Shown: piece by piece, positions 4,470 to 64,000 of the stretch
Numbering within the stretch: position 1 is the first letter of the stretch
How the letters are laid out: each line of letters begins with the position of its first letter
Assembly (NCBI GenBank): GCA_023898465.1
Contig: CP060223.1
Location: 160,001-224,000 of the forward strand
DNA length: 64,000 bases
Origin: Candidatus Nomurabacteria bacterium
Lineage (GTDB): Bacteria; Patescibacteriota; Patescibacteriia; HK-STAS-PATE-3
Reading direction: 5' to 3'
The notes under the pieces: generated by a model
Database searches by the model: none
Told to the model about the DNA's origin: nothing
What the model saw: the letters and a program-made list of their open reading frames with translations, nothing else
Made by a program: the position numbers and the translations under genes

Positions 4470-4476
4470 ATATATC

Positions 4477-9123: not shown

Positions 9124-9126
9124 CAC

Positions 9127-12100: not shown

Positions 12101-12345
12101 AGCTTGGTCGTAACGTAACAGATGCGGTTGATCGTTTGAATAATATTCAGAGCAATGTAAAAGCTCCAGACTTAAAAAATGAAATAGGCGGTCTGGTAGA
12201 TAAATTGAAGACCCATCAGGAAAACGGAGAATCAATTCGCTTTAATCGAACCCCGGCTGATGAGCAGCGAGAATTCTTTAAGCGCAGTACAGAATTACTT
12301 GGTGAGGTGGGTAAGGTAATAAAAAAGTCAGTTAAAGAAAAGTAG
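9127..12345 (+). CDS. Polytopic membrane protein with a long hydrophilic coiled/charged C-terminal domain. It is VirB6/TrbL-like by architecture and context.
   Basis: It has a signal-like N-terminus plus at least six hydrophobic helices in the first ~300 aa, followed by ~750 aa of hydrophilic K/E-rich sequence. It lies upstream of the VirB3-like and VirB4 genes in the same operon. The VirB6 assignment is inference from topology. No diagnostic motif was verified. Confidence 0.45.
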   Translation: MKFFLRLTGRMREKRGLGPTVLVSVFIVAALVLFFPESRAYAASTGDKVALFFIENFMYPVVQFLANVLIVVINILVAVAQYNGFINAPAVEKGWVIVRDLSNMFFIVFLLIIAFGTIFKIEAYRYNRILGKLVIFAFLINFSKFVAGFWIDIGQVIMLTFVNGFKDAAAGNLASGLGLDKTLELSNSPLQNIDITSKALYGAIILALILLGIAVVVTLIITVLLLYRIVMLWILIVFSPLAFLTRIFPNTTKYSDQWWGEFNKNIIVGPVLAFFLWLSLTVIATSNGNLATDFQSVSTQETTGLLGTANEAGEGTGQTISAAITTIGESDRLLSYMITIGLLLGSLQAAQQLGAAGGRWAGSMSEKLKTGGLSAAGVLSGVAAARLALRGGKAGAERVGSTAWRTAVTKSKVGNRQILAPLTRKYWEGYAQRGAEQQQVLDRRMMARGRTMADIVRETKLYGGGGDLAVGTYIEDTERALINEGYNEKQKSLGKNPSSEKVVQEMWSAKAQKGEQGITSKNSGALLGARNGNWDDLNQMMFFNKELKSNIEKYGPDPDQIPADVKSKLLEEWGFSTDSAIDEWEDVVNESSKHMRVIMMNYLGLSRKYDPEYLAAQEAQKRGKNIHIMRREGEAGDAGAAKEYKEIMQKSQQQAMNEAKNAGIDDRNRLIALQWAGDEALSVGQHVEQRHGLFNEEEGYSYIGTLEKMADDSYGLLNKTESSKVMERMSPHAITPRYFDTETGEIDYNTDASEWSEIGKRMFKFFGKFTNREIGRMSGRVGEQIIGLDGVVGKKNVIFDAKGQFYEGEGTDEEKKARRAESQRRWEAMYSQDSLSAKKLYMKVFTGSADGFKDWDKGGQTIKGWTPPAPTEAEKAAVKKAEAEENTETANKATGEEKTSTSDTAQKDETKSPGGVVLTPGAQFKAEQEGEVKTSDRSSQTPSVEPSADEKAPYNREHMQASDSYGRLANSLTAYHDELPKSADELRTTISELGRNVTDAVDRLNNIQSNVKAPDLKNEIGGLVDKLKTHQENGESIRFNRTPADEQREFFKRSTELLGEVGKVIKKSVKEK

Positions 12346-41882: not shown

Positions 41883-43511
41883 ATGCGACATCTTTCCTCC
41901 ATTGGAACGCTGCTTCTCCTCATCATACTAGGGACGACTAATGCTTTGCCTGTGCATGCACAATGGGTCGAACCTGATACTGGTGAATTTCCTACCACCG
42001 GAGGAAGCACGCAAGCGCCTTTAAATACTTCCAACGTAGATCAAACAAAGACTGGATCATTCTTTTTACAGCGCGGCTTAACAGCGGAGAATGGAGTGAG
42101 TTCAAGCGGCGTACTCACGGTACAAAATGGTAATTTGCGTGTTACGCCAGACGGCGGCGGTCAAATTTGTCTCAACGGTGTATGTAAAAGCTCGTTAGAA
42201 ACAAGCTCGGATAACTATGTACGTTTGTCTGCGATTGATCCTGACCTCGGCTTTGTGCTACTCGGTGATGGCTCAACTAACGAAGGTTATTTAGACATTA
42301 GTTCGACCGAAACAATTGGCTTATACGGTATTGCCGGTGATCCTATAACAAAAAACACCTACGGTTTATTGGGTATTGCTGGTGCTGATGATGCTCCGTG
42401 GCCTAATTTTTCAGCCGGTGTTTTTGGTGAGGCTGGTGCAAATACAAGTCAATCGATTGGTTTATCTGGTGTGAGTCCCGATCCAGACGGCCCTGCCTAT
42501 GCAGCCTACTTTAAGGGGCGAGTGAATATTGTGGGATGTCTTGAGTGGAATGGAGGCACTTGCTTAAATGCGTGGCCAAGTGGATTACCAAGCGGTGAGT
42601 ATGTTGCGCTTCTTGAAGATGACGATGAGCCGCAAATAGGAAATATTGATTTATCGACCAGCTCGACAACAGTTTTTACTAGCGTTGTGTTAGGCGATGA
42701 CCCCTCGGGCTTAAGTTTACCTGTGACCTGTGGAGACGGTATTTGCAACAATAGCGAGAGTGGGCTTACTTGTGCGATCGATTGTTTCACCATTATCAAC
42801 CTCCAAGTTACCAATATTACGGATGGCAGTGCTACCGTTACCTGGCGTACGCTGATCAATGCTGATTCATATGTTGAGTATGGATTGACCAGCGATTTTG
42901 GTAGTGATGTATATGATGCCTCGATGGTGACGATGCACTCTTTGCAAATACATAGCTTGAATCATGATACGCATTACTATTTCCGGGTCCGCACAACGAC
43001 CGGCTCGGGCATTTCTCAAACCAGCTCGATACAATCATTCACAACCCTACTTGATCAGACAGCACCTAATGTGCCGGCTAATTTGCGAACTACAACCCCA
43101 GCACCAGATCGAGTGCCATTAGCGTGGTTCCACTCTCAGCTTGATAATCCGGGTGGATCTGGTTTTAAAGAGTTCATTGTTTATCGTGATGGATCACCCT
43201 ACGACACTACCGGTAATACCTACTATGTAGATTATTTCCCAGATCCTGGATATGACCACGTCTATTGGGTGACTGCTGTGGATAATCGTAACAATGAGTC
43301 AGAGGCTTCAAATCCACTTATCGTGCATGTACCAACTCCGTGTATTAGCGACCTTGACTGTACTGATCCGCAGTATCCAGTTTGTTATGGTGCATTGGGG
43401 TGTGGCACACCTCCGCCCGGAGGCTCGCCAGTCATGCTTAAAGAAATTCCCTTAGAGTATTCCCAATATCAGGATCCAGGTGGTTGGGATGAAGGAGGTG
43501 GCTGGTACTAA
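41883..43511 (+). CDS. Secreted paralog with N-terminal EPD-motif domain, FN3 domains, and Cys-rich C-terminus.
   Basis: Signal peptide, then QWVEPDTGEFP, QICLNGVCKSS, TCGDGICNNSESGLTCAIDCF, two FN3-like modules (VTWRTLINADSYVEYG...THYYFRV; ...YWVTAVDNRNNESE), and a C-terminal GGSPVMLKE motif. Confidence 0.8.
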   Translation: MRHLSSIGTLLLLIILGTTNALPVHAQWVEPDTGEFPTTGGSTQAPLNTSNVDQTKTGSFFLQRGLTAENGVSSSGVLTVQNGNLRVTPDGGGQICLNGVCKSSLETSSDNYVRLSAIDPDLGFVLLGDGSTNEGYLDISSTETIGLYGIAGDPITKNTYGLLGIAGADDAPWPNFSAGVFGEAGANTSQSIGLSGVSPDPDGPAYAAYFKGRVNIVGCLEWNGGTCLNAWPSGLPSGEYVALLEDDDEPQIGNIDLSTSSTTVFTSVVLGDDPSGLSLPVTCGDGICNNSESGLTCAIDCFTIINLQVTNITDGSATVTWRTLINADSYVEYGLTSDFGSDVYDASMVTMHSLQIHSLNHDTHYYFRVRTTTGSGISQTSSIQSFTTLLDQTAPNVPANLRTTTPAPDRVPLAWFHSQLDNPGGSGFKEFIVYRDGSPYDTTGNTYYVDYFPDPGYDHVYWVTAVDNRNNESEASNPLIVHVPTPCISDLDCTDPQYPVCYGALGCGTPPPGGSPVMLKEIPLEYSQYQDPGGWDEGGGWY

Positions 43512-46500
43512 TGCGCTATTTCCAACTTCATTTACGTAAACGTTTAACAAATCTGGTGACTTTTGGATTAGCCGTACTTATGCTCGGCGTACTTATGATT
43601 GCTAGCCGTTTCGTAGGTAACGCAAATGCAGAATTTGGACTGACACCACGGTGGTCAACTGAGCCTCATGTGGGAGATAGTTCAGTCTACATTGGTCCAT
43701 GGTCAGCACCGATACAAAACTCTGCTTCCAGTCGACTCTTTGTATATACCGATGATATTCCTGGCGGGGATCGCAATAATTACGTGTTCCGTGTGAACGA
43801 TGATGGTAGCTCAGTGTTAGGAACCAAACTCACTCCAGCGCTAAATGTGGGAACAAACCAGGGAAATAATTTTGGCTTTGTCTCAGATGGTATCGGCGGC
43901 GCTTACGTTGGTTGGACCTCTAACGTTATTGGGGTGGGGTATAACAACGTCATTGCTCGAGTAGGTTCAAGTGGTAATTTGCAGTGGGTGCGTGCAAACA
44001 ATGATGCCGTGGGTGTATCTGAAGTAAACTGGGGACAGTATTTAGCCTCAGACACGAGTGGCAATGCGCTTATTACTTACTTTAAGGGTAGTTCTGTGTG
44101 TGCGATGAAGCTTAGTCGAGCAACTGGTGTGAGTCAGTGGTCATCATCAGCCAATTGTACCGTGGGAGCTCGATCTGCCCGTGAAATTTATCACTCTAGT
44201 TCAAATGCCATTGTGCGAGGCATGATTTCTGATCAACAGGGCGGCATGATTGTGCTACATCGCGATGGCGCAGGAAGCATTTTGCATGCCACTCGAGTAA
44301 ATAGTACTGGTACCGTACTCTGGACAGTAAGCATTACCGATGCTACTGGTGGTTCTCCAACTGGATTAGAATTATTTGCCAAGACTCCAGATACTTTTTA
44401 TGCGATTTGGCGTAAGAGCTCATCAAACTTTATTCAAGCTTTTCACACCTCAGATGGAAGTGCTGCCTGGGTTAACCCCCTCCTCTTTGCTGAATCGAAT
44501 AGCTATGATCCATCAAGTCAATTTGATCGAGCAAAGTTTGTTTGGAGTGGAGCCGATGAGTTGGCCACCGCTTGGCGGCGAACATCTGATAGCGCCCTGG
44601 TAACGAATCGCATTAATGTGGAAACGGGCGCGAAGCGTTGGGCTTCCGACGTTGTAGTGACGACCGAAGCTGAGGATAATAACTATAAAGTGGCAGGGAC
44701 GGCTCAGGGAGTCACCTTCTTTGCCTATTGTCATGATAATGTGCCATCTGATTCAGCACTTTGTGAAATGCAGGGAGTGAGTGCGGGCGGAGCGCTTGTC
44801 TTTTCTGCTGACGGAGTTGATGTTCGACGGAGTAAACCAGATGACATGCAATTCGGTCTGCACACCGTTACTTCATCGACAAGTAACACATATTGTTTGG
44901 ATGAGGGCTTCCGACGTATTGGAGAATCTGTTGGTGCACAAAGTTATTGTCTGAATAGTTTACCTACAGTTTCAGATCCGATTTGTAGTATTGATAACGG
45001 TAGTAATTTTGTACTTTGTTCTGATGCACAACAGGGTTCAACGGTGAGTCACGTGCAAGTAACCTGTGACCCAGGAGATTTTGTCCCACTTTCAGAAGGT
45101 ATGGTAGCAAATACTAGTGGAGTGCACGAGGATTCTGCCTTTATTGAGGGTCGCTATGTGGTATATCGCTATCTTGACTCCGGTCCTCGATGGAAAGTGT
45201 ACGCGTACGATTTAGGTCCTGATCAGCAGTTTGGTACGGGTGATGACCTAGGCACAAAAATTTTGGTGGATGAGGGGAGTATTGATACCTACCCACAAGA
45301 TATTAAGAATGGAAGAATTTTATATTGGCGTTCAGCTGGTGGCACGGCCTCTTTGCGTTTTTATAACCTCAGTGATGACTCGATAGATCCAGGCACCTTA
45401 ACGAGCGTCGCCTTTTCTTCAATTTCTGGCTACGATGGACGCTACTTAGTCTATGCACCTAGCGGCACAACCAACTTGAGTGTGAAAGATTTAGGTGTGG
45501 ACGAGGTGCTCGGTACGGCTGATGACGGGGGAAGCACTCAGCTTAATTCGACGCCCATGGCAAACTATGCCCGGGTGAGTGGACGTTATGCAGTTGGGCA
45601 CTCCACCGGTGGTTTAGATGATATCTATCTCTTCGATCTTACTTCGATTACACAAACACCTGTATATAGCAATGCTTCGGTGCAAGCTGATGTGCCAGAT
45701 ATCCAAGGACGATATATTGCTTGGATGGATTTTCGTAATGATCCAAATGGGTACGATGATGGCAGCGGCACCAGCAATGGCGACATCTTCATTTATGACA
45801 TGGGTCCAGATGAACAATACGGCACCTCTGATGATATCGGTGAATCACAAATCAGCGCCTCGGCGAAAAAAGATAGCTCACCGCGGATTGCCGGTACAAA
45901 GATTCTCTGGCATCAAACACAGAATGGCGGCGCGTCCGATGCAAATCAAAACGTTATGATGTACGACCTCGGACCGGATGGTGAATATGGTACGGCCGAC
46001 GATACTTCAGAAACCCAATTAACCAATAGTCTTAATAATGAATACTGGCCACGCGGAGATGGTGAGAACATTGTTTGGTTAAGCGATCAAAACGGTCCAG
46101 CAAATACCGATATTTTTATTACACCAGCTGGAATTGGTGCTGCATCAATAAGCGAAGTTCGCTTCACTATGACTGCGCCATCTGGTACGCGTTATGTTGA
46201 TCAAGTAGCTGGTGAGGTGAATGCTTCAACGTATACTCTTTATTACCCTGAGCTCATTGACGAAGAGGGGCAGTGGACGGTACAAGCCACTTGTGAAGAT
46301 GTGGCTGGACAAACAGTGCAGCGTGAAAGTATTTGGGATGTTGGACCTTGGCCTTTTAGTGATCAGCAAAAACTTTCTGTCTACGACGGAGTAGCGCAAA
46401 TTTCTAAGAATTCCGGTGATACGATGGAGATAGGTAATGCTGGACGCGATATTACCTCGAATGGAAATATTTACATCCGCCCGAATAACAGTTACGCGGG

Positions 46501-47020
46501 AGCGTACTTCGAAGGCGTAGCTTCAACTGGATCGCAGCGACTCCATCTACCCTATGGTGTGCCAGGTCAACACACTGTCTTTGCCAAGGGCACAGGTACG
46601 GTAAATAGCGCAGATGGTGCGAGTGGAATTGCAGGAATTTTTACAGGACTCTCTAATAATGCAGGTGGCAGTGGGGTTTACGGTGATGTAATGAGTTGTG
46701 CAAGCAGCGGTGGATGTGCCGCAGGGTATTTCCAGGGTGGAGATCAGATTGGCCTCTACGCCTCGACAAACAATGCCTCTTTACCAGCCCTACGAGCAGA
46801 AAACGCTGCCACACCAAATGCATCTACGCTGAATATGTCCGCACTCTTTACGGGTAAGGTGCAAGTGAGTCAGGACCTCTCCGGTTCATTTAGCCCTGAT
46901 GCCTGTGTATGGGTGACGGTAGACGTGGGCGATACTGTGTGTCCAAACGAAGGCTTTGTCTTTGGTTACGATAGCACCAGTTTCGGAGTAGCTGATAAAC
47001 TTTATTGTTGCGGAAACTAA
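43511..47020 (+). CDS. Large secreted or membrane-anchored paralog of 1169 aa, with repeat units and the shared C-terminal YCC domain.
   Basis: An N-terminal TM/signal is followed by EFGLTPRWSTEPH. There are four repeats of about 45 aa (D[LM]G[PV]D..[YL]GT.DD.G). The last ~230 aa are homologous to the 48686 and 49461 proteins and end in LYCCGN. A TAATG stop/start overlap joins it to the previous gene. Confidence 0.8.
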   Translation: MRYFQLHLRKRLTNLVTFGLAVLMLGVLMIASRFVGNANAEFGLTPRWSTEPHVGDSSVYIGPWSAPIQNSASSRLFVYTDDIPGGDRNNYVFRVNDDGSSVLGTKLTPALNVGTNQGNNFGFVSDGIGGAYVGWTSNVIGVGYNNVIARVGSSGNLQWVRANNDAVGVSEVNWGQYLASDTSGNALITYFKGSSVCAMKLSRATGVSQWSSSANCTVGARSAREIYHSSSNAIVRGMISDQQGGMIVLHRDGAGSILHATRVNSTGTVLWTVSITDATGGSPTGLELFAKTPDTFYAIWRKSSSNFIQAFHTSDGSAAWVNPLLFAESNSYDPSSQFDRAKFVWSGADELATAWRRTSDSALVTNRINVETGAKRWASDVVVTTEAEDNNYKVAGTAQGVTFFAYCHDNVPSDSALCEMQGVSAGGALVFSADGVDVRRSKPDDMQFGLHTVTSSTSNTYCLDEGFRRIGESVGAQSYCLNSLPTVSDPICSIDNGSNFVLCSDAQQGSTVSHVQVTCDPGDFVPLSEGMVANTSGVHEDSAFIEGRYVVYRYLDSGPRWKVYAYDLGPDQQFGTGDDLGTKILVDEGSIDTYPQDIKNGRILYWRSAGGTASLRFYNLSDDSIDPGTLTSVAFSSISGYDGRYLVYAPSGTTNLSVKDLGVDEVLGTADDGGSTQLNSTPMANYARVSGRYAVGHSTGGLDDIYLFDLTSITQTPVYSNASVQADVPDIQGRYIAWMDFRNDPNGYDDGSGTSNGDIFIYDMGPDEQYGTSDDIGESQISASAKKDSSPRIAGTKILWHQTQNGGASDANQNVMMYDLGPDGEYGTADDTSETQLTNSLNNEYWPRGDGENIVWLSDQNGPANTDIFITPAGIGAASISEVRFTMTAPSGTRYVDQVAGEVNASTYTLYYPELIDEEGQWTVQATCEDVAGQTVQRESIWDVGPWPFSDQQKLSVYDGVAQISKNSGDTMEIGNAGRDITSNGNIYIRPNNSYAGAYFEGVASTGSQRLHLPYGVPGQHTVFAKGTGTVNSADGASGIAGIFTGLSNNAGGSGVYGDVMSCASSGGCAAGYFQGGDQIGLYASTNNASLPALRAENAATPNASTLNMSALFTGKVQVSQDLSGSFSPDACVWVTVDVGDTVCPNEGFVFGYDSTSFGVADKLYCCGN

Positions 47021-48681
47021 TGCATTCAAAACTACGCATCTCAATTTTCTTTCTCGCTACAATCATTGTAGGAACCTTTGCTTTCAGGGCGATGGCTTTT
47101 ATCGAGCCGGATGATTTCCCGCCCAGTGATACAACGAGCGCACCAGTATTGACTGGTCCACAGGATCAGACTCGTCAGGGACCCCTGACAGTGCAAGGCA
47201 ACGTTAGCGCTTCCGGACCTTTAATTACTCGTGATAGTGAAATCGTTACCTCCGGTGATGTTACGGTGAGCGGTGGTGCTTCAATTTGTTTGAATGGAGA
47301 TTGTATTAACGCATGGACAGCGGCACTTGGTGATTTTGTTCGTCTCTCGCCACCGTCATCTGACGACGGATATATTCACTTGCAAGGTGGGGCTACTTTC
47401 CAAGCTGCCACTGACGCTGACTTTGCTCTATATTCTCGCGCCATTGCTCCGACAGCTAGTGCGAGTTATGGCTTTTATGGCAAGTCTTGGACTGGTCCAG
47501 TTACGAATAACTATAGCTACGGCGTACTTGGAGTGGCAGCTCATGAGGGAATAAATCCCGGAGCCCTAGCTTATGGCATTTTTGGCTGGAATGGAGATAA
47601 CCTCAATGCCTATGCAGGCTATTTCACTGGGAATGTTCAGTTAGTGAATAACTCGGAACTTTGTCTGACTGATGGTTTCACTATTGACTGTCGAACCACT
47701 TGGCCAAATGGAGCACCGGGCGAAGAATTTCTCCTCTTACAAAATACTTGGCCTACTTCAAGTCAGATTGGAAACACCGCGGTGAGTGGAAATGCGCAAT
47801 TTGCGAATGCGCTGTTGGGTGATCCGGGCGCCGGCACTCTTACCTGTGGCGACGGATTTTGTTCCGAGGATGCGATCAGTTGTCCAATTGACTGCCCGAC
47901 GATAACGAACATCGATGCGGAGTGGCTGACCTCTAGCAGCGCCCAGTTTACCTGGACTTCAAATACGACGATGACCTCAGTAGTTCAGTTTGGTCTTTCA
48001 GATCTCTATGGTGGACAAGACATTGACGGTTCATATGTCACAAGTCATTCAATCACCATTGAGGGCCTAGATAGCGATCAGGATTATCATTACCGCGTTG
48101 GTGGTCTGACGGAAAATTCTGGTGCAGCTGTGTTTTCCTCAGATCAAATATTGTCAGCCAGCGTGGTTGATATTGATCCTCCGCCAGTTCCGAGTGGATT
48201 AGTACTTGATGTGCATATTCCACCTCCATCTCCAACAGAAATCATCGACTTAACCTGGGCTCATGATTTGAGCGATAACCCAGTGGGTGGAAGTGGTTTT
48301 AAAGAATTTCATATCTATCGATTAGACTGGTCAGTTGGTCCTCCCTTTGTAATGATTGGCACCACCACCGATTTGAATTTCATTGATGATTCAGGGGATT
48401 TGAGTCAGACAAATGATTATACCTATAGTGTCACTGCAGTGGATAATAATGGCAATGAGTCAGATCCTTTCGAGCGAGCAGTGCACATTCCAGCGAGGTG
48501 TTCTTTTGATGTGGAATGTGGCGTTGATCCGGGATATCCTTTCTGCTGTACATGGAATGAAGGTGATAAAGCCTGTAGCGCAACTTCTTGTAAAGGAGGC
48601 GGGTCTCCAATTATGTTGAAGGAAGACCCTCCGCCATTAGGGCCACCTCCATGTAACGGTCCTGATTGTTATGGACCATAA
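47020..48681 (+). CDS. Secreted paralog with N-terminal EPD-motif domain, FN3 domains, and Cys-rich C-terminus.
   Basis: AFIEPDDFPPSD, SICLNGDCINAWT, TCGDGFCSEDAISCPIDCP, FN3 modules (ITNIDAEWLTSSSAQFTWTSN...YHYRV; YTYSVTAVDNNGNESD), and a C-terminal GGSPIMLKE motif. The start is at the TAATG overlap (the tracked 47005 start is 15 nt upstream). Confidence 0.8.
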   Translation: MHSKLRISIFFLATIIVGTFAFRAMAFIEPDDFPPSDTTSAPVLTGPQDQTRQGPLTVQGNVSASGPLITRDSEIVTSGDVTVSGGASICLNGDCINAWTAALGDFVRLSPPSSDDGYIHLQGGATFQAATDADFALYSRAIAPTASASYGFYGKSWTGPVTNNYSYGVLGVAAHEGINPGALAYGIFGWNGDNLNAYAGYFTGNVQLVNNSELCLTDGFTIDCRTTWPNGAPGEEFLLLQNTWPTSSQIGNTAVSGNAQFANALLGDPGAGTLTCGDGFCSEDAISCPIDCPTITNIDAEWLTSSSAQFTWTSNTTMTSVVQFGLSDLYGGQDIDGSYVTSHSITIEGLDSDQDYHYRVGGLTENSGAAVFSSDQILSASVVDIDPPPVPSGLVLDVHIPPPSPTEIIDLTWAHDLSDNPVGGSGFKEFHIYRLDWSVGPPFVMIGTTTDLNFIDDSGDLSQTNDYTYSVTAVDNNGNESDPFERAVHIPARCSFDVECGVDPGYPFCCTWNEGDKACSATSCKGGGSPIMLKEDPPPLGPPPCNGPDCYGP

Positions 48682-48685
48682 GTAT

Positions 48686-49459
48686 ATGCAAATGCAAAAA
48701 CATCAATTCGTACTAATATTTGGAACTGTGCTTTTCTCTGCTCTCTTCCTGGTCAGTAGTGCCTTGCCTGAAAAAGGGTATGCGGCTACACCTTTTGGAG
48801 GAAACAGCAATAAGCGCTTGTCTATTTATAATGGTACTTTATTACTTGATGGTAGCGCACAATTGCGCTTAGGTAATGCCGGTCGCGATATTCAAGCAAG
48901 CGGGACTCTGTATCTGCGTCCTGATGGAAGCGCGCGTGGCTCCTTCTTCAGCGGTGTTACCAATGATGTTGGTCAGCGCCTTTCATTAACTGGCGGCATT
49001 AGTGGCAGTGATACTATCCAAGCCTCCTGGATCGGAACGAATGGAGTAGACGAAACTCGAGGCGCGGTCACTGGTTATTTCCACGGCGCTCCTGATAGTG
49101 CGGTTGGTGCCGCAATTTTTGGTGAAGTACAATCATGTGGTGTTGGGCAAACCTGTTACGCTGGTTACTTTGCCGGTGGCCAAAGCACAGGAGTGCAAAC
49201 GTATACGGCGACAAATCCAAACGGTGGAGCTACTCCTGCTTTGCAAGTATTAAATGCTGATGCAAATGGCGTAGCCGCTTCCTTTACCGGTAATGTGCAG
49301 ACAAATCGGCTTATTCTCGATAATAATACTCGTTCTGCGTGTACCTGGGAGTCGGTAAGCGGTGCAGAATTAGTCTGCCCTAGCGGAAAATTATTAGCCG
49401 GTGTCCGAGCGAGTAATACAGACCCAGTCATTTCTGATATTTATTGTTGTGAGCTGTAA
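48686..49459 (+). CDS. Secreted protein made up essentially of the shared YCC domain alone.
   Basis: Signal peptide, then LSIYNGT, GNAGRDIQASGTLYLRPDGS, QTCYAGYFAGGQ, and a C-terminal CPSGKLLAGVRASNTDPVISDIYCCEL. The start is chosen just after the upstream stop. Confidence 0.75.
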   Translation: MQMQKHQFVLIFGTVLFSALFLVSSALPEKGYAATPFGGNSNKRLSIYNGTLLLDGSAQLRLGNAGRDIQASGTLYLRPDGSARGSFFSGVTNDVGQRLSLTGGISGSDTIQASWIGTNGVDETRGAVTGYFHGAPDSAVGAAIFGEVQSCGVGQTCYAGYFAGGQSTGVQTYTATNPNGGATPALQVLNADANGVAASFTGNVQTNRLILDNNTRSACTWESVSGAELVCPSGKLLAGVRASNTDPVISDIYCCEL

Positions 49460-49460
49460 T

Positions 49461-51716
49461 ATGCAATTCCCGCGATTACATAAACTACACATTTTAAGCG
49501 CGATGTTCATCGCAGTGCTTGGTTTAGGTGTCGCAGTTGGTGCCTACACCTATTCAAACTGGACTCGACAGCAAAAAGGAGCCGAGAATACGAGCGCTAG
49601 TACTGATAATGGTCCAACCGCGAACGTGGTGCAGGGGACGGTGTCGGGTTGTGTAAGCGGTACCACGCAAACGGTTGATTGGACGATGGTACGAGATGGA
49701 GAGCTTATCGTTGTTGCACATTCTGAGTCACAGGAAAAACTTTGCATTTATGATTATAACAGCGTTGCCACTTCACCGATTCGACAATATGACATGACTC
49801 AATCCGAGCGAAGTCCGGTTGTGGTAGGGGATGTGCTCTATCGAGTCAAAAAAGGCTTAAGTCCAATTCAAGTAGAGGCACGTTCACTCATCGATGGATC
49901 AGTGCTGTGGACAAAAACGATTAGCTCAACTGCGGTGGGTAGTACTTACAATGTAATAACCGCAGCTAATGGCAATCTCTATATCGGAGCGAAATTTAAT
50001 GGATCCGAGCAGAGAGTGCTCGCACTGCAGCAGATTGATGGTCAGCTGTTATGGATGCGCACTATTGAGCCAAGCTTTGGCTTTTCGACCAGCGTTGAAC
50101 AGCTTGGCGCCTTAGCAGTTAGTAGTGATCAAGTGTTTATCCAATTTGTTGAAGGTTCGCTGTCTGATGGTCGGGTTGGTTATCGTGCGCTTAATGCGAG
50201 TACTGGAGCCGTGAACTGGACTGCCGGTCCTTATGGTTCCGGAGTGATTCGGACCAGAGCGTCACTAATTTACGCTGATAATGCTATTTATGCTGCGCCT
50301 GATGCATATATTTCTCTCAGTTCAGCTACTGGAAATCAAACCTGGAATCAAGCAATGGCAGCTACGAATGAGGCCTTAAGTATCGCCTATAGCAGCACTA
50401 AGGTGTACTACTCCGAGCGACGAAGCACGCAATACGCCTATCTCGCTCGAAGTGCTATAAACGGCGGTTTGTCATGGACAGCTGGAAATTATAACGGCTC
50501 TATTGGTGATGGTCCCCTTGTCGTAGTAAATAACAACTTCCTATATCACTGCGCAAATAGTACCTTGCGAGGCATTTCCACTGTGACTGGTTTTGTTACG
50601 TTCACGGGAGTTGCGCCCACCTTCTGCAATGCCGCTGCAGTATATAATGGAATATTGTATGTGAATGGTAATGCCGGCTCAGTAGACCAAGGTAAAGTGC
50701 GTTTAATCGCAAATACTTTGCCCGCAAGCGCTACAACAACAGTTGGTGTGCCGACATGTAGCATTGATAATGGTTCTAATTACGTTGATTGCGCGAACTT
50801 ACAATATGGCGCGATTGTGACACATGCTCGGACAACCTGTACGAGTACTGCAGGAGTAAAAGAGGTGCAGTTCACCTTAACAGGGCCCGCCGGTACACAA
50901 TACTCCTCAGTAAAAGCACAAACAGTCGTCGGTGCTACCTATACTACACATGCGCCGGGAACGCTCGTAGGTAGTGGGCAATGGACCCTGACGGCAAAGT
51001 GCGTGAATAGCATTAATGAGAGTACATCGAATCAAAAGATTTGGACTGTTGGATCTGCTCCAAGTGAAGGATCTCAGAAGCTTTCTATTTACGAAGGAAG
51101 CGCTCGCTTTACTGATGGTGAGACTATGGAAGCGGGTGCGCTCAGCGGAGATGCAAATATCGACTGGATTGGCTCTGATAGTATTTATGTTCGTCCAAAC
51201 ACTTCAAACGGTTCTTCATTCTTCCAAGGTGTTTCAGCACTTGATCGGCAAAGCCTCTATTTAAGCGGCGGCATTAATGCGAAACCAAGCTTGGAAGCAG
51301 TTGGTTTAGGACAAAATGGAGTACCGTACCTAGGCTCTGCTATTGCCTCAACTTTTGATGGGGCTAGTTTTTCCTCCGGTGGCGGTGCAATTTACGGAGG
51401 AGTGAGTAGTTGCGGGGCAGGGAAAACTTGCTACGCAGGATACTTCAATAACAGCTCCGAAACTGGCTATGGTATTCTCGTTACGAATAACTCCGCGTCG
51501 CAACCTACGCTTCGGGCGGAAAATTTAGCCGGTGGCACTGCAGCCAATTTCGTGGGCGTAGCTAAGGTGAGTGGCGATCTACAGGCAGATAATAATACGG
51601 TGAATAGTTGTACCTGGACACCAGTGAGTGCAAAAGAATGTCCGGCTGGGACTGTCGCCTCTGGTATGCGATTTAGCGGAGGAGTGGTGAGCGAATATAA
51701 TTGTTGTAGTCTCTAA
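49461..51716 (+). CDS. Secreted paralog with a beta-propeller-like N-terminal region and the shared C-terminal YCC domain.
   Basis: Signal/TM, then a region of about 450 aa, then LSIYEGS, IYVRPNTSNGS, KTCYAGYFNNSS, and a C-terminal ECPAGTVASGMRFSGGVVSEYNCCSL. Confidence 0.8.
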   Translation: MQFPRLHKLHILSAMFIAVLGLGVAVGAYTYSNWTRQQKGAENTSASTDNGPTANVVQGTVSGCVSGTTQTVDWTMVRDGELIVVAHSESQEKLCIYDYNSVATSPIRQYDMTQSERSPVVVGDVLYRVKKGLSPIQVEARSLIDGSVLWTKTISSTAVGSTYNVITAANGNLYIGAKFNGSEQRVLALQQIDGQLLWMRTIEPSFGFSTSVEQLGALAVSSDQVFIQFVEGSLSDGRVGYRALNASTGAVNWTAGPYGSGVIRTRASLIYADNAIYAAPDAYISLSSATGNQTWNQAMAATNEALSIAYSSTKVYYSERRSTQYAYLARSAINGGLSWTAGNYNGSIGDGPLVVVNNNFLYHCANSTLRGISTVTGFVTFTGVAPTFCNAAAVYNGILYVNGNAGSVDQGKVRLIANTLPASATTTVGVPTCSIDNGSNYVDCANLQYGAIVTHARTTCTSTAGVKEVQFTLTGPAGTQYSSVKAQTVVGATYTTHAPGTLVGSGQWTLTAKCVNSINESTSNQKIWTVGSAPSEGSQKLSIYEGSARFTDGETMEAGALSGDANIDWIGSDSIYVRPNTSNGSSFFQGVSALDRQSLYLSGGINAKPSLEAVGLGQNGVPYLGSAIASTFDGASFSSGGGAIYGGVSSCGAGKTCYAGYFNNSSETGYGILVTNNSASQPTLRAENLAGGTAANFVGVAKVSGDLQADNNTVNSCTWTPVSAKECPAGTVASGMRFSGGVVSEYNCCSL

Positions 51717-51717
51717 T

Positions 51718-54700
51718 ATGGCATTTGTACAACGACATTCACGAGCACTATTTATCAGTATATTCGCAACACTTGTTATAGTGGCTGCTGGACTTCTTAT
51801 TGCAAAGGTTAGTTTTGCTGGGCTCGAGTGGGAGCCGCAAAAACCTCCAGAAGTATATCAGAATAACAGTAGCATCGACTTCTATAAAGTTGATTTCCAA
51901 CAAAACCCCAGCGATAATAAATACTATGGTTGGGTGGTAGGTGAGGACTTAAGCGGTAAACAATCAAGCCTCCTTTACTTTAATGGCGCTTTTTGGAAAT
52001 CAATTACCGACGACGGTTTGGGTGCGGGGTCGACATCGGACCTCTTTGATGTTTCCGCTGTTTGGAATTCAGATATTGATCAGTATCTTGTTTGGGCAGT
52101 AGGGGAAAATCAAGCGCTCTGGTATTTAACTGACAGCGAGACTGTGTGTAATAGTGAAGCTATCCCATGTCCTGATAGTCCAGCTGGAGCTGTGACTTTA
52201 AATTCGGTTGAAGGTGCTTGGTATAGCGGAGATGATAAAGTTGCCTTTTTTGTAGGTGATAACGGGCACATTTATCATGCAGTGGCTGATGATTACCAAA
52301 GCGCATTCGCCTACACCGCAGCATTTGCTACGAGCGGGACCATCCGCGATATTGATTCTTTTGACGCTGCACATACTTGGGCAGTATCAAGTGATGGCAA
52401 GATATATTTTAATAGCGATTATCTGACAAACTCGTGGGTGCAACAAGCCTCTTTCCCAGGCATTGATTTTACAGGAGTGTCAGCGGCAGATGCCAGCCAC
52501 GTATGGGCTTCGGCAATTAACGGCACAAAAGGTCAAATTTATTTTTACGACGGGTCCACCTGGTCGCTCCAATTCACTACAGTGCTTGATATTCCGCTTC
52601 ATGATGTGAGTGCATTTTATAATCCTACTTTATCTATTTATAATGCCTTTGCGGTTGGTGATATTGATTCCTCTACAGGCAACGGAGGTGTTTATCAATA
52701 TAATGGTACAATTTGGGAACGGCAGGATTCAAATAATAATGGTGAAGTATTACGCGGCATTTCTGCTGCCAGCCTTATTGAGATACGAGCCGTTGGTGCG
52801 AACACCACACTCTTAACCAGCTCACCGGGAAATATATTTGGTTGGATTTGGCTAGGATCAAGCACAAGTAATGGAAGTGGCGATGCGCTGGGATGGGGAA
52901 GCGGAAGCTGCGCTAATCTTGATAGTTGTGAAAGTGCTGGCTTTACTTACGGCGTAAACATCCGCCGCAGTGGCACCAGTCAAGGTGCTTTGTCTGGTTA
53001 CTTTTGGCTAGGGAATGCTGATCCGGATGCTTATATTCCAAATGACTGTGACACCGATCCAGGCGTCGAAGCTTGTCAATCTAATTCGAGCATTAGCTGC
53101 ACTACTGATTTTGAATGTCGTTGCGCTATTAATTCAGCAGCTTGTTTTTCAACTGGTTGGATGTCGTTTAACAAAAAAGGCTCGGATGGTGTGACTGATG
53201 AGGCTGGCACACCTCCAGCTGCACCGTACAATGATGGTGCGCAAAACTATATTGCTCGATTTGATGCAAAGACGGGTAAGGTAACTGGCTGGGCTCGTTT
53301 ACTTTCCTTATACGAAGATCCAAGCACTGGTGGCTGGATTCGTTTGCGAGGGAATGCAGTTACTCCGAATGTAGGTGACTTACCAGTCCGAGACTGTAAA
53401 AATTGTGGCAAATTCTGCAGTCTCGACACTACGTATAAGTGTACAGTTGACGCTGACTGTAATGTAGACGCAGACGGTGATGGAACAGATGAAAACTACG
53501 GCCCGTGTAATGTGAGTGTTTGTAAGATTTGTAATGCTTTAAATGATGAAACAATCGTTTCTGCAAACATGTGCTCAAATACCGGCGGCACCTCATGTAC
53601 GCGACGTTGTGAGCTTAACAACAGTATTACCTGTACCGATGATGCAGATTGTATAGGATTTGGCTCATGTGTGAATGAGACTTTTTGTGATTCTTGTGTG
53701 ACCTATGACCAATATGGTGTAGCGATTGATGACGCAACTGGTAAGATTACCGGCTATGCTTGGAGTGGCGCGTCTACTACATATGGTCAACTTGGCTGGA
53801 TTGATTTTAATCGAGCAAACTATTATAGCCAGGCTTGGTTACAGACCCAATTTGGGAATATCTACGCTCAAGCTGATATCGGTAGCGTTGGTACGCCAGC
53901 TGCTCCAGAGGGTAAATGTAATGCGACATACGTGATTAGTGCAGCTGGTACCATCACTAACTTCTGTTCGCGCTACGAAGAAATCGATCCAACCGCCCCG
54001 CCAGGGGACTACACCACTCGCCCCTTCATCCAGCAAAACTACGATGAAATTTATTATCCAACCGAGGCAAATAACTATACGAACGTCCTAGGAAAATTGG
54101 ATCCAGATGCTCTGGTGCAGGATGTGGGCGCTGGAAAAAATAAATATGGCGATGAAATCATTACGGTAAACAGCGATGCTGATTTACTTGACCTTGGCTT
54201 GTGTGATGCTGACGGAGTAACGCTTGATGGCAAGGTATATCATGTGGTTGGAAATCTCAGTATCGGTGTCTGTAATCCTGGTAGCGGTGATGTTACTGAA
54301 TTGATTATTAAGAATTCTTCACTCGCCAGTGGGTCAGGGACAATAGTGGTTGATGGTAATCTCACCATTGATATGAATATAAGCTACGAACAAAGTTCAA
54401 TCTCTAATATTAGAGATTTGGCCTCCCTGGGTGTGATGGTGAAGAAAAATATGATAGTGACTGGTGATGTAGATTCAATCGTCGGCTCCTATATCGTCTT
54501 TGGAACCGATGAGACAGAAGCTAATAAATTTAGTGGAATTAAGATTGAAAACTCCTTAATCGAACGCTCCTTTAGTGCGCAAGGTCTCATGATCGCCCGA
54601 GGCTTCAAATTCGAGCGCACATATCGTGGCACCTTAATCGATCCACAACCAGCTGAGCAGGTGGTATACGATGGACGGGTGATTGCAAATACGCCGCCAG

Positions 54701-54756
54701 GATTCCGTGATTTTGCGAAAGTCTTACCAGTTATTCGAGAAACCATACCTTTTTAA
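51718..54756 (+). CDS. Large membrane-anchored secreted Cys-rich protein (1012 aa) with an N-terminal EPQ motif.
   Basis: An N-terminal TM is followed by GLEWEPQKPPE. The middle is Cys-rich (CKNCGKFCSLDTTYKCTVDADCNVDADGDG...) and the C-terminus is beta-helix-like. It is the last gene of the paralog operon. Confidence 0.75.
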   Translation: MAFVQRHSRALFISIFATLVIVAAGLLIAKVSFAGLEWEPQKPPEVYQNNSSIDFYKVDFQQNPSDNKYYGWVVGEDLSGKQSSLLYFNGAFWKSITDDGLGAGSTSDLFDVSAVWNSDIDQYLVWAVGENQALWYLTDSETVCNSEAIPCPDSPAGAVTLNSVEGAWYSGDDKVAFFVGDNGHIYHAVADDYQSAFAYTAAFATSGTIRDIDSFDAAHTWAVSSDGKIYFNSDYLTNSWVQQASFPGIDFTGVSAADASHVWASAINGTKGQIYFYDGSTWSLQFTTVLDIPLHDVSAFYNPTLSIYNAFAVGDIDSSTGNGGVYQYNGTIWERQDSNNNGEVLRGISAASLIEIRAVGANTTLLTSSPGNIFGWIWLGSSTSNGSGDALGWGSGSCANLDSCESAGFTYGVNIRRSGTSQGALSGYFWLGNADPDAYIPNDCDTDPGVEACQSNSSISCTTDFECRCAINSAACFSTGWMSFNKKGSDGVTDEAGTPPAAPYNDGAQNYIARFDAKTGKVTGWARLLSLYEDPSTGGWIRLRGNAVTPNVGDLPVRDCKNCGKFCSLDTTYKCTVDADCNVDADGDGTDENYGPCNVSVCKICNALNDETIVSANMCSNTGGTSCTRRCELNNSITCTDDADCIGFGSCVNETFCDSCVTYDQYGVAIDDATGKITGYAWSGASTTYGQLGWIDFNRANYYSQAWLQTQFGNIYAQADIGSVGTPAAPEGKCNATYVISAAGTITNFCSRYEEIDPTAPPGDYTTRPFIQQNYDEIYYPTEANNYTNVLGKLDPDALVQDVGAGKNKYGDEIITVNSDADLLDLGLCDADGVTLDGKVYHVVGNLSIGVCNPGSGDVTELIIKNSSLASGSGTIVVDGNLTIDMNISYEQSSISNIRDLASLGVMVKKNMIVTGDVDSIVGSYIVFGTDETEANKFSGIKIENSLIERSFSAQGLMIARGFKFERTYRGTLIDPQPAEQVVYDGRVIANTPPGFRDFAKVLPVIRETIPF

Positions 54757-61504: not shown

Positions 61505-62713
61505 ATGCCAAATTTTGAATATACTGCACGAGATAGTCAGGGAAATACCAGTACAGGTATTGTTGAAGCGCCAACTGAGAGCATAGCGCAGGATGTTTTG
61601 CGTGAACGCGGTTTGATAGTGACCGGTATTAGCGAGCGTCAGCGCAAAGCGCTTTTTCAAACCTCGCTGAACATATTTAATCGCGTGCCTCGTCGTGATG
61701 TCACTATTTTTTCACGGCAGCTGGCAGTGATGATTTCGGCCACGGTACCGATTGTGCAGGCTTTGCGTATCCTCGTGAAGCAGACAGAAAACGTAGCTTT
61801 TAAGATTATTATCTCAGAGGTTGCTGATGAGGTTGACGGTGGATCAAAGCTTTCCGCCACTTTAGGGAAGTATCCTCATGTGTTCAATGATTTCTTTGTG
61901 CACATGATTCGATCTGGTGAAACCACGGGTAAGTTGGATGAAACGCTCAACTATTTAGCTGATCAGCAGGAAAAAGACTACGATTTGATCTCTAAGATCA
62001 AAGGCTCGATGACCTATCCGGTCTTTATTCTGGGTGCTTTGGTGGCTGTCGGTATCCTTATGATGATTTTTGTGATTCCACAGCTGACCGATATCCTGAC
62101 AGCTGGTGGGCAAGAGCTGCCGATTATGACGCGAGCTTTAATCGCTACCTCGGCATTTTTGCAGACAAAGTGGTGGGTGTTGCTTATTGTGATTGCGCTT
62201 TTGTACGCGGCATATCGCTTTGTGGAGCGGTCTGAGCAAGGTCAAGACGTGATTGATCGCTTGAAGCTGCACTTCCCAATTTTTGGACAAATTTTTCAGC
62301 GTATTTACCTTGTCCGTTTCGCGCGCAGCTTATCAACCTTAATCTCCAGCGGCGTGCCAATTACTCGCTCACTCGAGATTGTGGCTGATGTGATTGATAA
62401 CCGTCTCTATCGTAAGTTAACCAAAGAGACTATTGAAGCAATTGAGGGAGGTAAATCTATCTCCTATGTCTTTGCGCAAAATAAAGATATCCCTCCTATG
62501 TTGACGCAGATGATGAGCATTGGTGAATCAACTGGTAAGCTTGATTTCATTTTAGAAAAGCTGGCAAATTTCTACAGTCGTGAGCTAGAAAACAACGTAG
62601 CAAACCTGGTTAGCCTGATCGAACCTTTGATTCTGGTGGTTATGGGTGTGGCAGTTGCCTTCCTCGTTATCGCTATTCTCTTGCCGATGTATAATTTGTC
62701 ATCAGCCATTTAG
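61505..62713 (+). CDS. pilC: Type IV pilus platform protein PilC (GspF family).
   Basis: A 402-aa ORF with two GspF-type repeats and three TM helices. The N-terminus is PNFEYTARDSQGNTSTGIVEA. Confidence 0.85.
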   Translation: MPNFEYTARDSQGNTSTGIVEAPTESIAQDVLRERGLIVTGISERQRKALFQTSLNIFNRVPRRDVTIFSRQLAVMISATVPIVQALRILVKQTENVAFKIIISEVADEVDGGSKLSATLGKYPHVFNDFFVHMIRSGETTGKLDETLNYLADQQEKDYDLISKIKGSMTYPVFILGALVAVGILMMIFVIPQLTDILTAGGQELPIMTRALIATSAFLQTKWWVLLIVIALLYAAYRFVERSEQGQDVIDRLKLHFPIFGQIFQRIYLVRFARSLSTLISSGVPITRSLEIVADVIDNRLYRKLTKETIEAIEGGKSISYVFAQNKDIPPMLTQMMSIGESTGKLDFILEKLANFYSRELENNVANLVSLIEPLILVVMGVAVAFLVIAILLPMYNLSSAI

Positions 62714-62892
62714 CTAAAGTTAGCCGAAAAAGTAGGGGATTTGTTGTCGAATGTGGAAAAGTAAGAACACTTGTTCGGTATTTGCAAAAATGGTACACTA
62801 CAACTGTACAAATTGCGTACACTAAAAGCCTCGGCATATTTCACGCGTGAAGTATGTACAACGGCAAAATGAAAGGGGGTGAGACAGAAAGA

Positions 62893-63459
62893 ATGAAAAA
62901 AGGATTCACACTTATTGAGCTCTTGGTCGTGATCGCGATCATCGGTATTTTGTCTGCAATTGGGCTCGTCTCACTAAACGGTGCACGTGAAAAGGCCCGT
63001 GACGCCCAAGCCAAGTCTGACCTTGGTCAGATGCGCACTGCGTTGACCTTGTTTGCTGATGATAACGGTGGAAGCTTTGTTGGAGTGCAGGTAGCAGGCG
63101 CAAGTAATACGCCTGATTGTTCTGGTGACACAAACGACGCCGGATCGACCGCAGCTGGTAATGATTAAGTGTGGGATAGCAACGACGGTTACCGATTATC
63201 TCTCAACCTATCTAAATTCACCACGAGCTTGGTTACTGGCGCGGACGCGTGCGAAGGTCGTTATGGTTATGTGGCAAATGAATTCAGCTGCTACCGTAAA
63301 CGACGCTGATGATTATGTGTTGTTCTATAGACCGAAACAGGTGATGGACAAAACTACTACAAGCTTAGCGCTGACGGGCAGTCGGTTGATTATTCAGATA
63401 ATGAAACAGGTGTTCCTACCTGTCCAAACACGGGTGCGGCTTGTACGCTAAATCCGTAA
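62893..63459 (+). pseudogene. Type IV pilin gene that has an intact prepilin N-terminus but is interrupted by in-frame stops and compensating frameshifts (pseudogene or silent-cassette-like).
   Basis: The class III signal is MKKGFTLIELLVVIAIIGILSAIGL. An in-frame TAA lies at 63166. The same frame then continues with pilin-like sequence (VWDSNDGYRLSL...GADACEGRYGYVANEFSC), matching GIWDGTGG...YGYVSNG of the downstream pilin. Further in-frame TGA, TGA and TAG lie at 63307-63330. The +1 frame carries DDYVLFY, similar to SDYGLYY in the neighbouring pilin. The original frame ends ...TGDGQNYYKLSADGQSVDYSDNETGVPTCPNTGAACTLNP* at 63459, just before a terminator. Confidence 0.65.
62959..63035 (+). repeat. 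77-nt segment perfectly identical to 63619..63695 (the conserved pilin N-terminal region).
   Basis: A direct nucleotide comparison of the two pilin genes shows the flanking codons differ at synonymous sites while these 77 nt are identical. Confidence 0.9.
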
Positions 63460-63470
63460 GGTTGATAAAC

Positions 63471-63500
63471 AAAAAAGGGGTGCTAGTTGACCCCTTTTTT
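63471..63500 (+). terminator. Rho-independent terminator (bidirectional hairpin).
   Basis: AAAAAAGGGG, loop tgctagttga, CCCCTTTTTT. This is a 10-bp perfect stem with A- and T-tracts, located 12 nt after the pilin-frame stop. Confidence 0.8.
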
Positions 63501-63552
63501 GTTTATTGTGCTATACTTACCGCATTGAAGCTTAAGTTAAAGGGGGTAGTTA

Positions 63553-64000
63553 ATGAAAAAAGGATTCACACTTATTGAGCTCCTAGTTGTTATCGCGATT
63601 ATTGGAGTACTTTCTGCTATTGGGCTCGTCTCACTAAACGGTGCACGTGAAAAGGCCCGTGACGCCCAAGCCAAGTCTGACCTTGGTCAGATGCGTACAG
63701 CATTAACTTTATTTGCTGACGATAGCGGTGGATATTATCCAGATGTACAAAGTGATAGTCCTGGTGTGCCAGATGAGAGCGCTCCCAATTTAACTGAGGG
63801 CGGTATTTGGGATGGCACCGGTGGGTCAATAATTCCAAGTTATCTATCAGCAGAACTTGAATCCGGCTCAAGTACTCCTTACGGTTATGTATCGAATGGA
63901 CTAGATGCTACTCCAAATGTATCTAGCGATTATGGGCTCTATTACTTGTTAGAATCTGGCGATGGAGCGCGCTACTACGTGCTTACTGCCAATGGAACAG
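63553..64000 (+). CDS. Type IV pilin (major pilin candidate), 3' end beyond the window.
   Basis: MKKGFTLIELLVVIAIIGVLSAIGLVSLNGAREKARDAQAKSDLGQMRTALTLFADD... with GGGGGT as a Shine-Dalgarno 6 nt upstream. The ORF is open to the end of the window. Confidence 0.85.
   Translation, partial: MKKGFTLIELLVVIAIIGVLSAIGLVSLNGAREKARDAQAKSDLGQMRTALTLFADDSGGYYPDVQSDSPGVPDESAPNLTEGGIWDGTGGSIIPSYLSAELESGSSTPYGYVSNGLDATPNVSSDYGLYYLLESGDGARYYVLTANGT

Follow-up and report, generated by a model that had tools for sequence, protein, structure and literature searches.

The question raised by this locus is what becomes of a type IV pilin gene whose reading frame closes after 91 codons while pilin-like sequence continues behind the stop. 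The gene, pil1 (62893-63459), heads a tandem array, pil1-pil2-pil3, directly after pilC; all coordinates refer to the window, the whole 64-kb stretch of DNA that was analyzed. An earlier sequence-only reading had offered three answers: a decaying duplicate pilin, a silent cassette for recombination-based pilin variation, or a 91-aa minor pilin with a fossil 3' region.

Gene context and conserved features of pil1

The genes upstream of pil1 were assigned with Pfam to pilM, a pilO-like gene, pilB, a response regulator, pilT and pilC, a complete pilus-assembly set. Their order is the same in relatives, which is the genomic association expected of a type IV pilin, and for the eight pilus-assembly genes just upstream the gene lengths agree with those of relatives. 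The genome is that of an uncultured member of the Patescibacteria. PilC (61505-62713) is 100% identical to USN53718.1 of Candidatus Nomurabacteria bacterium, 78-80% identical to its counterparts in the nearest other genomes, and ~65% identical in several next ones, labelled Kerfeldbacteria. The features between pilC and the window end are as follows.

62771..62799, + strand: promoter-like site of pil1, TTGTTC, 17 nt, TGG-TACACT (candidate, placed by eye from the alignment)
62893..63168, + strand: open part of pil1, with leader MKKG cleaved before F, N-terminal helix and start of the variable domain; 91 codons, then TAA at 63166-63168
63464..63507, no strand assigned: predicted intrinsic terminator, perfect 17-18-bp inverted repeat with A-run and T-run, from folding
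63509..63517, + strand: putative extended -10-like element before pil2, TG-c-TATACT, read from the sequence
63553..64000, + strand: pil2, intact paralogue cut by the window end; full protein 173 aa (P0121 / USN53719.1)

The N-terminus of pil1 (MKKG, then FTLIELLVVIAIIG after the cleavage site) matched PF07963 N_methyl (E=8e-9, 35.1 bits against a cut-off of 21.2) and carries the leader Gly, F/M-T-L-I-E, Glu5 and hydrophobic helix of a type IV pilin. A strong RBS, AAAGGGGGTGA, precedes the ATG at 62893. All coordinates of the sequence-only reading, including the ATG and the in-frame TAA at 63166-63168, were correct, and the intact prepilin leader and strong terminator that it had described were both found. 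The terminator hairpin, followed by its T-run, folded with a dG of -24.8 kcal/mol (z=-6.2). A promoter/terminator consensus scan called neither this terminator nor the promoter-like sites, and an Rfam scan of 62600-64000 returned sub-threshold noise on the terminator hairpin and nothing else. In the aligned promoter-like site of relatives (TTGTTG, 17 nt, TGC-TATAAT) the -10 box differs from that of pil1 at two positions. An arrangement similar to the -10-like element before pil2 follows the terminator of one relative, L008. Between the promoter-like site of pil1 and its RBS lies a 22-nt near-perfect palindrome, CATATTTCACGCGTGAAGTATG (62835-62856), and GTACACTA is present twice, at about 62793 and 62817; the palindrome and repeats may form an operator or 5'-UTR element.

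In the source genome pil2 is followed by pil3 (184 aa, P0122 / USN53720.1), 65% identical at the protein level in a search made with the partial pil2; residues 1-61 of the pil3 protein are the same as residues 1-61 of pil1. PilC, pil2 and pil3 were given consecutive accessions (USN53718/19/20), with no protein record for pil1. Because, in addition, no pil1 product of 91, 99 or 104 aa was found in a collection of ~15 billion proteins, the depositor's annotation made no pil1 protein. An AF2 model of pil2 (pLDDT 91) has a helix at residues 7-57 and beta-strands at 111-114, 127-132 and 141-145, and type IV pilins are the closest matches to its fold in the PDB, at a weak level (1oqw, probability 0.98, E=0.04). 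Aligned on this model, the pil1 stub stops in the loop before the first beta-strand and leaves Cys77 unpaired.

Lesions and ancestral reading frames

Frameshift-aware alignment and profile scoring located five lesions in pil1, one nonsense codon and four single-base frame changes (~63187, ~63225, ~63284 and ~63332), the latter as two compensating pairs. The TAA at 63166 replaces the Gly of a G-[IV]-W motif. Beyond it, the ancestral frames run as follows, all on the + strand.

63169..63186: ancestral block, frame 0, VWDSND, with the conserved G-[IV]-W motif
~63187-63190: frameshift 1, 0 to +1, in GACG[G]TTACC
63188..63223: ancestral block, frame +1, VTDYLSTYLNSP; 9.2 bits alone, at a collinear profile position
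~63224-63226: frameshift 2, +1 to 0
63226..63282: ancestral block, frame 0, SLVTGADACEGRYGYVANE
~63281-63287: frameshift 3, 0 to +1, in GAAT[T]CAGC
63287..63331: ancestral block, frame +1, AATVNDADDYVLFYR
~63332/63333: frameshift 4, +1 to 0
63331..63459: ancestral C-terminal block, frame 0, TETGDGQNYYKLSADGQSVDYSDNETGVPTCPNTGAACTLNP plus TAA, with the conserved C-terminal Cys pair; 30.2 bits

Stops and compensating frameshifts had been reported from the sequence alone; they are real, though the damage was understated, with three lesions counted instead of five and the second frameshift pair missed. The frame-0 reading given there as GYRLSLNLSKFTT is not ancestral, since 63188-63223 read in frame +1 gives VTDYLSTYLNSP, which fits the family motif [IV]-x-x-Y-L-x-x-x-L-x-x-P. 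Among 117 homologues, 93-96% have its Y97 and P105, which are encoded in frame +1 only. The stops in frame 0 are TGA at 63307, TGA at 63310, TAG at 63328 and the final TAA at 63457-63459. The two TGAs and the TAG are by-products rather than lesions, because the shifted block at 63287-63331 is there being read out of frame. At frameshift 4, restoring a lost T yields a CTC Leu codon within Y-R-L-E-T-G, compared with YYRLETG in P0123.

Scores were obtained with a profile of the variable domains of 40 related pilins, from which pil2 was left out. The last frame-0 block (63331-63456) scored 30.2 bits (E=3e-11), the +1-frame stretch 13.5 bits, and the repaired region after the TAA 56 bits. The +1-frame match is in two parts, AATVNDADDYVLFY, which the sequence-only reading had recognized as pilin-like, and, ahead of it, VTDYLSTYLNSP. 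Off-frame segments of 64 intact pilin genes at related loci served as a control (455 segments, 12,011 residues in all), and their maximum was 1.7 bits. Pilin homology beyond the TAA, as first described, is thereby upheld. Repair with four frameshifts scored 74.4 bits against 61.2 for repair with two. The variable domain of repaired pil1 reached 75.9 bits compared with 77.9 for intact pil2. A continuous ORF for the globular beta-sheet domain and C-terminal disulfide loop is absent in pil1, and the domain was recognizable after repair only (74-76 bits).

None of the frameshift sites (GACGGTTA, CCACGAGC, GAATTCAG, TAGACCGA) has a run longer than 2, and the one A6 run in pil1 is intact. No homopolymer or simple-sequence repeat of a phase-variable contingency locus was found at these sites, nor any repeat beyond the 5' box shared with the other copies, and a slipped-strand contingency locus was rejected on the absence of slippery or repeat sequences there. 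The compensation between frameshifts does not restore translation. That all five lesions fall within 166 nt is weakly unusual (p about 0.08, a scan-statistic estimate); as a sign of a special mechanism this clustering was set aside as not compelling. Two compensating pairs 36-45 nt apart have a ~1-in-4 chance of arising from four independent +/-1 indels. Substitutions were seen as well: in the still-open part of pil1 the YP motif, whose P is present in 98% of 117 homologues, has become FV (P63V), and repaired pil1 has 2-3 violations at 11 conserved variable-domain sites, P63V among them, counts that occur in 3-11% of intact homologues.

Comparison with related loci

Repaired pil1 (189 aa) aligned end to end with the first pilins of L002 (178 aa), L081 (182 aa) and L083 (178 aa), and the alignment with relatives takes in the YxLxxxLE...G core and the C-terminal Cys pair. 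Comparison with orthologous loci, a check put forward with the sequence-only reading, gave intact first pilins of 173-192 aa in a single frame. The leader/RBS segment of pil1, AAATGAAAGGGGGTGAGAC, is the same as that before the relatives' first pilins, and the pil2 leader differs. From its position and this conserved leader/RBS, pil1 is the positional counterpart of the relatives' first pilin, which is presumably the major pilin. No pilin recovered, pil2 and pil3 included, is more than 39% identical to it in the variable domain. A protein word-index search with the repaired variable domain gave no match at E<=1e-3 and thus no close pil1 allele. The shortest of the 120 best homologues has 132 aa and is a partial record.

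Several related contigs end at this place. Four stop inside the first pilin gene (L001 11389-11561; L020 11356-11505; L089 9478-9843; L091 2178-2504), and L082 ends 73 nt after it, which suggests that population heterogeneity or repeats at the pilin locus break short-read assemblies of relatives. In L008, an 823-kb contig, the sole major-type pilin after pilC (11379-11950) has a single frameshift beside a CCCC run, the rest lying in frame +1. As a second example of a broken pilin it was set aside, a long-read error being the probable cause given the single CCCC-run shift in the locus's only major-type pilin. Gene content near pilC and the pilins varies among relatives: a gene of the 23S-rRNA-intervening-sequence type (four-helix bundle) between pilC and the pilin in L002 (1347-1727) and upstream of pilC in L087 (675-1037), and an IS200-type Y1 transposase directly 3' of the pilin in L081 (8089-8544).

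Recombination between pilin copies

A search for recombination tracts between the pilin genes, also proposed with the sequence-only reading, recovered one between pil1 and pil2, and a longer box shared with a separate contig.

62959..63035, + strand: gene-conversion tract, 77 nt identical to pil2 63619-63695
62868..63035, + strand: shared 5' box, 168 nt (25 nt leader/RBS plus codons 1-48), 100% identical to the 5' end of the L086 hybrid gene

In the flanks of the 77-nt tract, pil1 and pil2 differ at 11/30 nt and about 8/36 nt, almost all of the differences synonymous. Across the tract itself roughly 11-19 sites separate pil1 from its orthologues in L001, L002, L081 and L083. Because the orthologues vary over the same stretch, constraint at the nucleotide level is excluded, and the pattern indicates recent gene conversion as the explanation of the pil1/pil2 identity. 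The tandem pilins of the relative L087/L088 also have a 77-nt identical run, and their 5' ends are near-identical.

L086 is a 700-nt ENA contig (ERZ27309238, k141_753943) whose gene product, P0241, falls in the 90% cluster of pil2. The gene is identical to pil1 from -25 to +143 and to pil2 from +67 to +448 (the window end), and both sides of the crossover are free of mismatches. In front of the gene stand the pil2 3' end and a leader identical to the last 25 nt of that of pil1. A 141-nt terminal overlap closes the contig into a loop with one pilin gene and a 37-nt spacer. It could represent a real recombinant or tandem structure, or a loop formed through the pil3 5' end; we lean to a real recombinant because only reads should have been able to supply the hybrid 141-mers.

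Exchange inside the variable regions was not seen between pil1 and pil2 DNA, where the best identity was 65% over 111 nt. No second copy of 63036-63459 was found within the 64-kb window, and pil1 as the target of a diversity-generating retroelement was rejected on this absence of a template repeat.

Interpretation of pil1

pil1 has full-length homology to intact genes together with disabling lesions, as expected of a bacterial pseudogene, and we think it probable that it is a real pseudogene of the positional major pilin, with pil2 and pil3 as the working copies. One nonsense substitution and four single-base indels, midway through the variable domain, would have disabled the gene, while the intact pil2 and pil3 presumably supply the pilus subunit. 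Its leader, RBS, signal peptide and N-terminal helix would have been overwritten repeatedly by gene conversion from the working paralogues, in concerted evolution of a shared ~170-nt 5' box, and the pristine 5' end would be owed to this conversion rather than to any need for a 91-aa product. The damage is local and speaks against a general error rate, because the rest of the window is unbroken: the 64 kb are 96% coding and none of the other ~48 long ORFs looks like part of a split gene. The indel sites are without long homopolymers (0/4). On the other side, there is little missense decay in repaired pil1, which counts against a pseudogene, and so do the compensating frameshift pairs, which a consensus of mixed alleles can also yield. 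We infer that the lesions exist in cells, that pil2 and pil3 took over, and that the 91-aa stub is without a role. Of the earlier phrase "decaying duplicate pilin", the decay fits best, given the full-length homology, the five lesions and the missing protein record; a recent duplicate of pil2 it is not, the variable domains being too far apart (at most 39% identity).

An artefact of assembly or consensus would mean that one or more intact pil1 alleles exist in the population and that the published hypervariable middle is a mosaic or poorly polished, with indels added. The lesions are mostly +/-1 indels in compensating pairs, repaired pil1 scores like an intact pilin, the pilin genes of relatives are assembly trouble spots (L001, L020, L089, L091, L082), the only pilin of the long-read-style contig L008 has its frameshift at a CCCC run, and the source, one contig of 1.08 Mb, is probably a long-read assembly, the platform being our guess. 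Against this, the TAA substitution is untypical of consensus errors, the indels lie outside long homopolymers, the other 63 kb of the window, with the repeat-prone 5' box, are clean, and conserved-site substitutions (YP to FV) accompany the lesions; an artefact was accordingly judged unlikely. The broken gene could also be kept as a donor or partner in pilin switching, its variable domain swapped, deleted or duplicated via the 5' box so that the pilC-proximal pilin changes. The 77-nt conversion tract speaks for such a reservoir, as does the exact mosaic of L086, with its crossover inside the shared tract and a terminal overlap indicating a tandem or looped structure, and tandem pilins with homogenized 5' ends recur in L087/L088. 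Exchange is, however, demonstrated in the conserved 5' part only, the DNA identity of the variable regions is too low for homologous exchange, true silent cassettes lack the RBS and 5' coding region that pil1 has retained, a donated variable segment would carry the lesions along, and L086 could be a graph loop through the pil3 5' end; retention of pil1 as a reservoir therefore seems distinctly improbable.

Still less probability, at a level we regard as very low, was given to a functional short pilin, in which the 91-aa product (87 aa after leader cleavage) would, once synthesized and processed, serve as a minor or regulatory pilin beside a fossil 3' part. Leader, RBS and N-terminal helix are intact, all lesions lie downstream of codon 91, and short pilins are known elsewhere (Geobacter PilA-N). 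But the intact 5' end is explained by gene conversion, and the chance that no lesion falls outside the last 52% of the gene is ~14% for three lesions and ~4% for five. No pilin under 132 aa occurs among the 120 best homologues, the stub lacks the beta-strands of the pil2 model and the Cys partners, the YP-to-FV change lies within it, and its -10 box is weaker than that of relatives. The 91-aa minor pilin of the sequence-only reading is thus disfavored. Programmed recoding, by which stop read-through and four ribosomal frameshifts would give a full-length pilin, has in its favor that the frames alternate between 0 and +1 only and return to 0. Slippery heptamers, simple repeats and stimulatory structures are absent at the sites, five events within 170 nt would be unprecedented, and a single frame encodes the protein in relatives; we regard recoding as next to impossible.

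Comparison with known pilin systems

In the pilE-pilS system of Neisseria gonorrhoeae and Neisseria meningitidis, the pilS cassettes have no promoter, RBS or conserved 5' coding part and act as donors of variable-region segments. The locus described here resembles it in having pilin copies with common conserved sequence, a broken copy beside working ones, and non-reciprocal recombination, represented by the 77-nt tract and the hybrid contig. It differs in that pil1 keeps its RBS, ATG and 57 conserved N-terminal codons in a pilC-proximal, expression-like position, and in that exchange is confined to the conserved 5' box. A Neisseria-type silent cassette was therefore rejected: the 5' features are kept and no donation of variable region was seen between pil1 and pil2 DNA. 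The "silent cassette" of the sequence-only reading fails in this defining feature, while the evidence for recombination among the copies is real.

A second parallel is Francisella tularensis, in whose reduced genome pilin genes have reportedly been lost by nonsense mutation, frameshift or direct-repeat recombination while paralogues persist, with the lesions said to be verified in cultured strains. Here too a type IV pilin is inactivated in a reduced genome while its paralogues stay. The phylum and lifestyle are different, and a single metagenome-derived assembly is the source of the pil1 lesions described here. Kingella kingae (pilA1/pilA2) and Eikenella corrodens (ecp) have tandem major-pilin paralogues with concerted 5' ends and intact copies. 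Like these, and like L087/L088, the present array has adjacent pilins with a near-identical N-terminal coding region and divergent globular domains, but the copies are intact in those organisms and the first copy is dead here. In Geobacter, PilA-N and PilA-C are two conserved, separately translated genes, and pil1 shares with them a short N-terminal pilin ORF followed by DNA for the remaining globular domain. In contrast, the downstream part of pil1 is marked by four frameshifts and lacks a conserved start, and the split is found in no relative. A split pilin of the PilA-N type was rejected, since the first pilins of relatives are intact (173-192 aa) and the downstream part is frameshifted.

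Possible pilin turnover through tandem arrays

Type IV pili are described in one report (PMC11623550) as well conserved in Patescibacteria and as predicted to mediate attachment to host cells. Since attachment is predicted to depend on them, the pilin that is expressed may set the host range. As such, a pilin pseudogene is routine biology, an ordinary fate for a duplicated surface-protein gene. What the locus shows is that a positional first pilin can be lost with its paralogues remaining, and that recombination takes place among the 5' ends of the copies; tandem arrays may be the route by which pilins turn over in these organisms. In annotation, pil1 is not to be entered as a 91-aa pilin.

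Rearrangement of the array in natural populations is hinted at, and possible recombinational pilin switching in a host-dependent ultrasmall bacterium is the part worth following. The proposal that the pilC-proximal tandem array is a switching locus in this Patescibacteria lineage is a speculative one, which we would not expect to hold. RecA-type crossovers in the ~170-nt identical 5' box would delete, duplicate or re-head variable domains, and the population would in this way replace or bypass a dead or disfavored first pilin. L086, with its pil1-type head and pil2 body, would be one such product. If the proposal were true, specificity of host attachment could change without new mutations.

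Other large genes in the window

Three very large ORFs (1478, 1563 and 1072 aa) occupy 33-12345. The first, of 1478 aa, contains Big_7, fn3 and purple-acid-phosphatase-N-like domains, and the third, of 1072 aa, has a sub-threshold TrbL/VirB6 match (23.8 bits against a cut-off of 25.9); these may be surface or type IV secretion-like components. Directly upstream of pilM, at 41883-54756, lie six large ORFs on the same strand (542, 1169, 558, 262, 771 and 1012 aa). Three of the four that were scanned had no Pfam match, and the fourth, of 558 aa, had weak fn3-like matches only. The six genes could be pilus-associated.
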